Source of the DNA: Escherichia phage phiX174
Length of the DNA: 3,164 nucleotides
Sequence record: Z35638.1
Reading direction: 5' to 3' (one strand)
The notes below the pieces were generated by a model that searched no databases, was not told the DNA's origin, and was given only the letters and a program-made list of their open reading frames with translations. Below are positions 2,449-2,724 of the stretch, piece by piece (positions within the stretch are counted from its first letter, which is position 1; each line of letters starts with the position of its first letter). A program made the position numbers and the translations under genes.

Positions 2449-2724
2449 ATGGTACGCTGGACTTTGTGGGATACGCTAGCTTTCCTGCTCCTGTTGAGTT
2501 TATTGCTGCCAAGCTTGCTGATCATGTTCATCCCGTCGACATTCAAACGGCCGGTGAGCTCATGGAAGGCGCTGAATTTACGGAAAACATTATTAATGGC
2601 CTCGAGCGTCCGGTTAAAGCCGCTGAACTGCAGCCGGTTACCTTGCGTGTACGCGCAGGAAACACTGACGTTCTTACTGACGCAGAAGAAAACGTGCGTC
2701 AAAAATTACGTGCAGAAGGAGTGA
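2449..2724 (+). CDS. E: phiX174 lysis protein E (91 aa), a single-gene lysis protein that inhibits MraY; placed downstream of tac/lacO
   Basis: Translation from ATG 2449: [91 protein letters not shown], with the hydrophobic N-terminal transmembrane segment and basic C-terminus typical of E. It lies in the +1 frame inside D as in the phage, with GAGG at 2436-2439 as SD. The track ORF 2401..2724 starts at an upstream TTG; the true start is the internal ATG. Confidence 0.93.
2475..2642. other. Cluster of engineered restriction sites inside E/D: NheI 2475-2480, HindIII 2511-2516, BclI 2519-2524, SalI 2535-2540, EagI 2548-2553, SacI 2556-2561, XhoI 2601-2606, PstI 2628-2633, BstEII 2636-2642
   Basis: Nine palindromic 6-7 bp sites within 168 bp seen directly; each is synonymous in the E frame and coincides with an amino-acid change in the D frame relative to recalled native phiX174. 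Matching vector sites (HindIII, polylinker PstI/SalI/SacI) are absent elsewhere by manual scan. Confidence 0.75.

Follow-up and report, generated by a model that had tools for sequence, protein, structure and literature searches.

Glutamine codon 89 in an engineered, plasmid-borne phiX174 lysis gene E is very probably an inherited, common natural allele

The analysed window, 3164 nucleotides in length, corresponds in all its bases to a complete circular pUC19-type plasmid carrying a tac-driven phiX174 lysis gene E (Table 1). The backbone, which includes the pMB1 origin and the lac promoter, showed 99.7–99.9% identity with pUC-derived records, and the junction between the end and the start of the window was found to be contiguous in pUC-like records. 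In place of the polylinker there is an EcoRI cassette (nt 2240–2769), with EcoRI sites at nt 2240 and 2764; the former HindIII site was apparently filled in, with the addition of an EcoRI linker (ccaagct-gaattc-agctt, nt 2233–2250). The promoter at nt 2246–2341 is taken here to be tac on the basis of the consensus. The pUC lac promoter and the inserted tac promoter (nt 2140–2335) stand in tandem and in the same orientation, with one lac operator each. No lacI gene is present on the plasmid; keeping a lethal gene on such a high-copy replicon would call for a lacIq host.

The E gene lies wholly within the D-frame ORF ending at nt 2729, in a different frame, and the D frame itself matched the Pfam family gpD with 234.9 bits. 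In the automatic ORF listing, the D frame begins upstream at a GTG codon inside the tac promoter (nt 2295–2729) and E at a TTG codon at nt 2401 (nt 2401–2724). Both were rejected as starting sites, the real E start being the ATG at nt 2449, in accordance with the phage annotation. The downstream part of the ORF at nt 2729–3019 is presumably lacZ-alpha; the resulting J'-lacZ-alpha fusion would supply an alpha-complementation read-out 3' of E.

Table 1. Position of the features identified in the 3164-nt plasmid window.
Feature	Position (nt)	Strand	Remarks
bla, TEM-116-type as in pUC vectors	201–1061	+	plasmid backbone
Promoter cassette (presumed tac), drives E	2246–2341	+	read from sequence
-35 element	2267–2272		TTGACA
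-10 element	2289–2294		TATAAT; spacing from -35, 16 bp
lac operator	2301–2321		
BamHI site	2336–2341		
D frame, cut short and altered	2340–2729	+	D residues 24–152, without D start codon
phiX174 nt 460–882 insert	2341–2763	+	3' three-quarters of D, whole E, first 12 J codons
Lysis gene E, complete	2449–2724	+	91 codons plus stop; ATG 2449, TGA 2722–2724
Engineered E stretch, codons 9–63	2475–2642	+	nine unique 6–7-bp restriction sites
NheI site, unique	2475		
HindIII site, unique	2511		
BclI site, unique	2519		
SalI site, unique	2535		
EagI site, unique	2548		
SacI site, unique	2556		
XhoI site, unique	2601		
PstI site, unique	2628		
BstEII site, unique	2636		
BsgI site	2710–2715	+	GTGCAG; unique in plasmid; needs A at phiX174 position 833; natural by-product of the allele
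D codon overlapping E codon 89	2712–2714	+	GCA (Ala); GCG in NC_001422; difference synonymous in D
E codon 89	2713–2715	+	CAG (Gln); middle base 2714 = phiX174 position 833
J'-lacZ-alpha (presumed) in-frame fusion	2729–3019	+	first 12 J codons joined to pUC19 lacZ-alpha via EcoRI 2764–2769

The encoded protein belongs to the Pfam family Microvir_lysis (PF04517), with a match of 79.3 bits (cut-off 25; E = 1.8e-22) over residues 35–74. The N-terminal hydrophobic transmembrane segment, a 20-residue core with Pro21, is present and was invariant in the 11 Bullavirinae E proteins aligned with that of the window. The N-terminal transmembrane helix of E is the part of the protein that binds and inhibits MraY. 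Given its 100% identity to the E of lytic phiX174 stocks, the window E would be expected to lyse cells via SlyD-dependent MraY inhibition.

When compared with natural phiX174 bearing A at position 833, the insert showed exactly 21 substitutions, all located at nt 2475–2637 and all synonymous in E, three of them being serine swaps from TCN to AGC. On the contrary, 20 of the 21 alter the D frame, the exception being a Leu-to-Leu change at nt 2628, and the cassette as a whole leads to 14 amino acid changes in D, a frame that is cut short and dispensable here. Together with the unique restriction sites they create, these substitutions identify the engineered E as a purpose-built version of the lysis gene for cassette mutagenesis. 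Elsewhere in the insert, no unplanned difference from the natural sequence was observed. No copy of the engineered insert was retrieved from the plasmid collection or from complete E. coli genomes, where the only matches were to 5386-bp phiX174 'plasmid' genomes, and a full-text literature search found no published record of the construction of the plasmid.

An ungapped comparison of window nt 2341–2763 with phiX174 nt 460–882 revealed an A at phiX174 position 833, where both NC_001422.1 and J02482.1 carry a G (codon CGG, Arg), so that the E tail reads ...KNYVQKE in the window and ...KNYVRKE in the two records. The initial annotation had noticed a CAG at codon 89 in place of a reference CGG, and the alignment bore out both its coordinates and the CGG it gave for the NCBI sequence. 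It was equally right that the change is silent in D, GCG and GCA both coding for Ala, and that a positive charge is lost from the tail of E, which has one fewer than the Sanger translation. Its description of the codon as an E variant has instead to be reversed, as detailed below.

To count the two alleles, 45-nt megablast queries centred on position 833 were run against the phage collection. Since megablast requires an exact word of 28 nt, a central mismatch cannot be seeded and records bearing the other allele are not retrieved, each query thus counting its own allele. With these queries A833 was found in 138 phage records and G833 in three only, namely J02482, NC_001422 and MN385565. Among the A833 records are AF176034 ('Anc', the laboratory ancestor of the Bull/Wichman experimental evolution work) and S13 (M14428). 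As for MN385565, it derives from a work in which NC_001422.1 was downloaded and synthesised and viable phage was recovered (PMC6883844). Being built from NC_001422.1, it adds no separate lineage, and every G833 record thus traces to one Sanger sequence of 1977/78; no independently sequenced stock of the collection carries G833.

The protein data are in agreement. By exact-protein look-up, the Gln89 form of E was found in 64 contigs and the Arg89 form in a single one, the accessions of the latter being AAA32576.1, NP_040709.1 and QEP53365.1; Arg89 is thus confined to the Sanger record and two derivatives, and Gln89 is the usual form. In the 90% identity cluster, Gln occupies the position in 14 of the 15 listed members, Arg being restricted to the protein of the Sanger record. 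The exact Gln89 protein appears under source names such as 'Lysis protein E n=16 RepID=LYS_BPPHS' (UniRef100, n=16) and 'RecName: Full=Lysis protein E'; the Swiss-Prot reference E therefore apparently has Gln89, its residue 89 being read from the name given to the exact Gln89 sequence. Whether the reference E carries Gln, a check proposed in the initial annotation, thus received a split answer: Arg according to NC_001422, and Gln if the sequence named LYS_BPPHS is considered.

A similar picture emerged from the relatives. The wild isolates ID45 and NC5 of the phiX clade have CAG (Gln) at codon 89 despite several nearby differences from phiX174. The aligned position is occupied by Leu in the G4-like phages WA14, ID11 and WA3, and the E of the alpha3-like phages NC29 and phiK stops short of residue 89. 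Gln is thus found in ID45 and NC5, and Arg in no relative examined, which indicates that Gln89 is the ancestral state of the phiX174 clade.

With regard to known systems, the 91-aa E proteins of Anc (AF176034), S13 (M14428) and LYS_BPPHS are identical to that of the window, Gln89 included, and at the DNA level nt 460–882 of natural A833 phiX174 differ from the insert by the designed changes only. Unlike Anc and S13, however, the window is a plasmid clone and not a phage genome, with engineered sites, a cut-short D and a J'-lacZ-alpha fusion. The E of Sanger phiX174 (J02482/NC_001422) has the same length and is identical at 90 of 91 residues, the residue at position 89 being the Arg encoded by CGG.

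The difference at position 833 is also documented in the literature. In the NGmerge work, position 833 is tabulated, together with 587 G>A, as G in the NCBI sequence and A in Illumina iGenomes, and A at 833 was present with an allele frequency of at least 95% in every Illumina run examined (PMC6302405). In a study on the variance of phiX174 lysis time, two laboratory wild types are set apart by five background differences, one of which is G833A; the change is described there as altering E and not D and as falling 'well outside' the transmembrane region that is essential (PMC4825663). That study implies the existence of a G833 laboratory wild type, although its own sequencing covers only nt 65–730, and the G833 of this wild type may have been taken over from the Sanger record. 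G833A has therefore already been described, and it is the Sanger reference, not the window, that is atypical.

Both 587A and 833A were found together in four deposited 5386-bp phiX174 genomes (CP004084.1, NZ_AP024892.1, NZ_OR345925.1 and NZ_AP026443.1). One of them comes from the assembly of a honeybee-gut bacterium, and the other three were submitted as Vibrio, E. coli and Cellulomonas plasmids. The 587A base turns E codon 7 into an amber stop, presumably the am3 mutation. The Illumina PhiX control and phiX174 am3 share A833 with the window and differ from it by this amber codon, the window having G at 587 and an intact Trp at codon 7. If, as appears, am3 is the strain sequenced by Sanger's group, the presence of A833 in the commercial am3 lineage suggests that the reference G was either misread early on or is a mutation private to Sanger's stock.

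The phiX174 segment was additionally detected in NZ_AP024868.1, NZ_AP028091.1 and NZ_AP024880.1, the hosts of the 5386-bp 'plasmids' being overall Vibrio, Cellulomonas, Edwardsiella and E. coli. Such 'plasmid' and honeybee-gut records almost certainly represent contamination by the Illumina PhiX spike-in. An exact phiX174 D/E/J segment is found as well in Mycolicibacterium phage J1 (MZ417522.1, 24,953 bp, nt 2440–2484) and in one Protaetiibacter phage record, probably as a consequence of PhiX control reads being assembled in.

Taken together, these data make it very probable that the Gln89 codon is a known strain polymorphism of phiX174, in its majority natural form, which the plasmid inherited. 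A833 would have been passed on from the phage DNA, or from the phage sequence, used to build the tac-E cassette plasmid, and Gln89 would appear as a variant only since the NCBI reference carries G at 833. Of the three origins envisaged by the initial annotation, a natural strain difference is thus the one favoured by the 138 A records against three G, which at the same time argue against a deliberate mutation and a sequencing error.

A deliberate R89Q change, introduced by the engineers of E for example to probe the basic tail at the C-terminus or to gain a BsgI site, might be considered in a gene so heavily engineered, with its 21 designed changes and with a unique BsgI site (GTGCAG) generated by A833. 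The design rule of the cassette speaks against it: the designed changes are all silent in E and confined to codons 9–63, whereas position 833 is silent in D, differs in E from the Sanger sequence and lies 77 nt past the last of them. Moreover, the same base is shared by 138 records of phages, natural or laboratory, and requires no engineering, and the BsgI site is natural to every A833 phage, so that the creation of this site was rejected as a reason for the base. We regard a deliberate origin as very improbable.

A mutation arising spontaneously during PCR or cloning, or one allowing the plasmid to escape the toxicity of lethal leaky E expression at high copy number, is likewise very improbable. 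E is indeed toxic, and with lac and tac promoters and no lacI the selection of an attenuated allele is plausible in principle. Nevertheless, 1269 single substitutions are possible in the 423-nt insert, so that hitting the exact natural polymorphism by chance would be an approximately 1-in-1000 coincidence, and no second unplanned change accompanies it. Escape in particular was rejected, as fully lytic phages carry Gln89 and have an E identical to that of the window. Finally, an error in the record, with the physical plasmid actually carrying G, is hardly credible: any single base of a record can be wrong and nothing more specific speaks for it here, but the called base is the majority natural allele, and a record assembled in silico on the basis of the NCBI reference would show G instead of A.

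With regard to the function of E, residue 89 belongs to the cytoplasmic C-terminal tail, 15 residues past the end of the Pfam-conserved region (residue 74) and far from the N-terminal helix; in the alignment, the last ≈15 residues are missing altogether from some natural E proteins. Arg89 is functional, as indicated by the viability of the synthetic phage with the Sanger sequence (PMC6883844), and an Arg89 E chain is present in the solved structure 8G02. Gln89 phages, on their side, are the standard lytic stocks of dozens of evolution experiments. With both alleles functional and residue 89 outside the conserved region, no functional consequence is expected, and the difference between Gln and Arg would be neutral or nearly so. 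No direct comparison of lysis kinetics between Gln89 and Arg89 was found in the literature, and we consider a measurable difference between the two forms, be it in lysis timing, E stability or SlyD dependence, unlikely. Should there be one, biochemical and structural studies of the Sanger-sequence E, such as that of 8G02, would have dealt with a protein slightly different from the natural one.

The biological weight of the polymorphism is therefore small, and its use is mainly that of a caution on the phiX174 reference. Clones, spike-in controls and synthetic constructs compared to NC_001422 alone will seem to carry a mutation where they have the normal Gln89, and those employing E for bacterial ghosts, MraY inhibition or structural work should bear in mind that it is the 'reference' Arg89 which is unusual. 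As far as the window is concerned, the design of E for cassette mutagenesis is a more notable feature than codon 89. As a minor observation, chain B of PDB 8G02 has, besides Arg89, an Arg at E residue 42 (KARNLRK), in contrast to the Leu42 (KALNLRK) of the window and of all phage E proteins.
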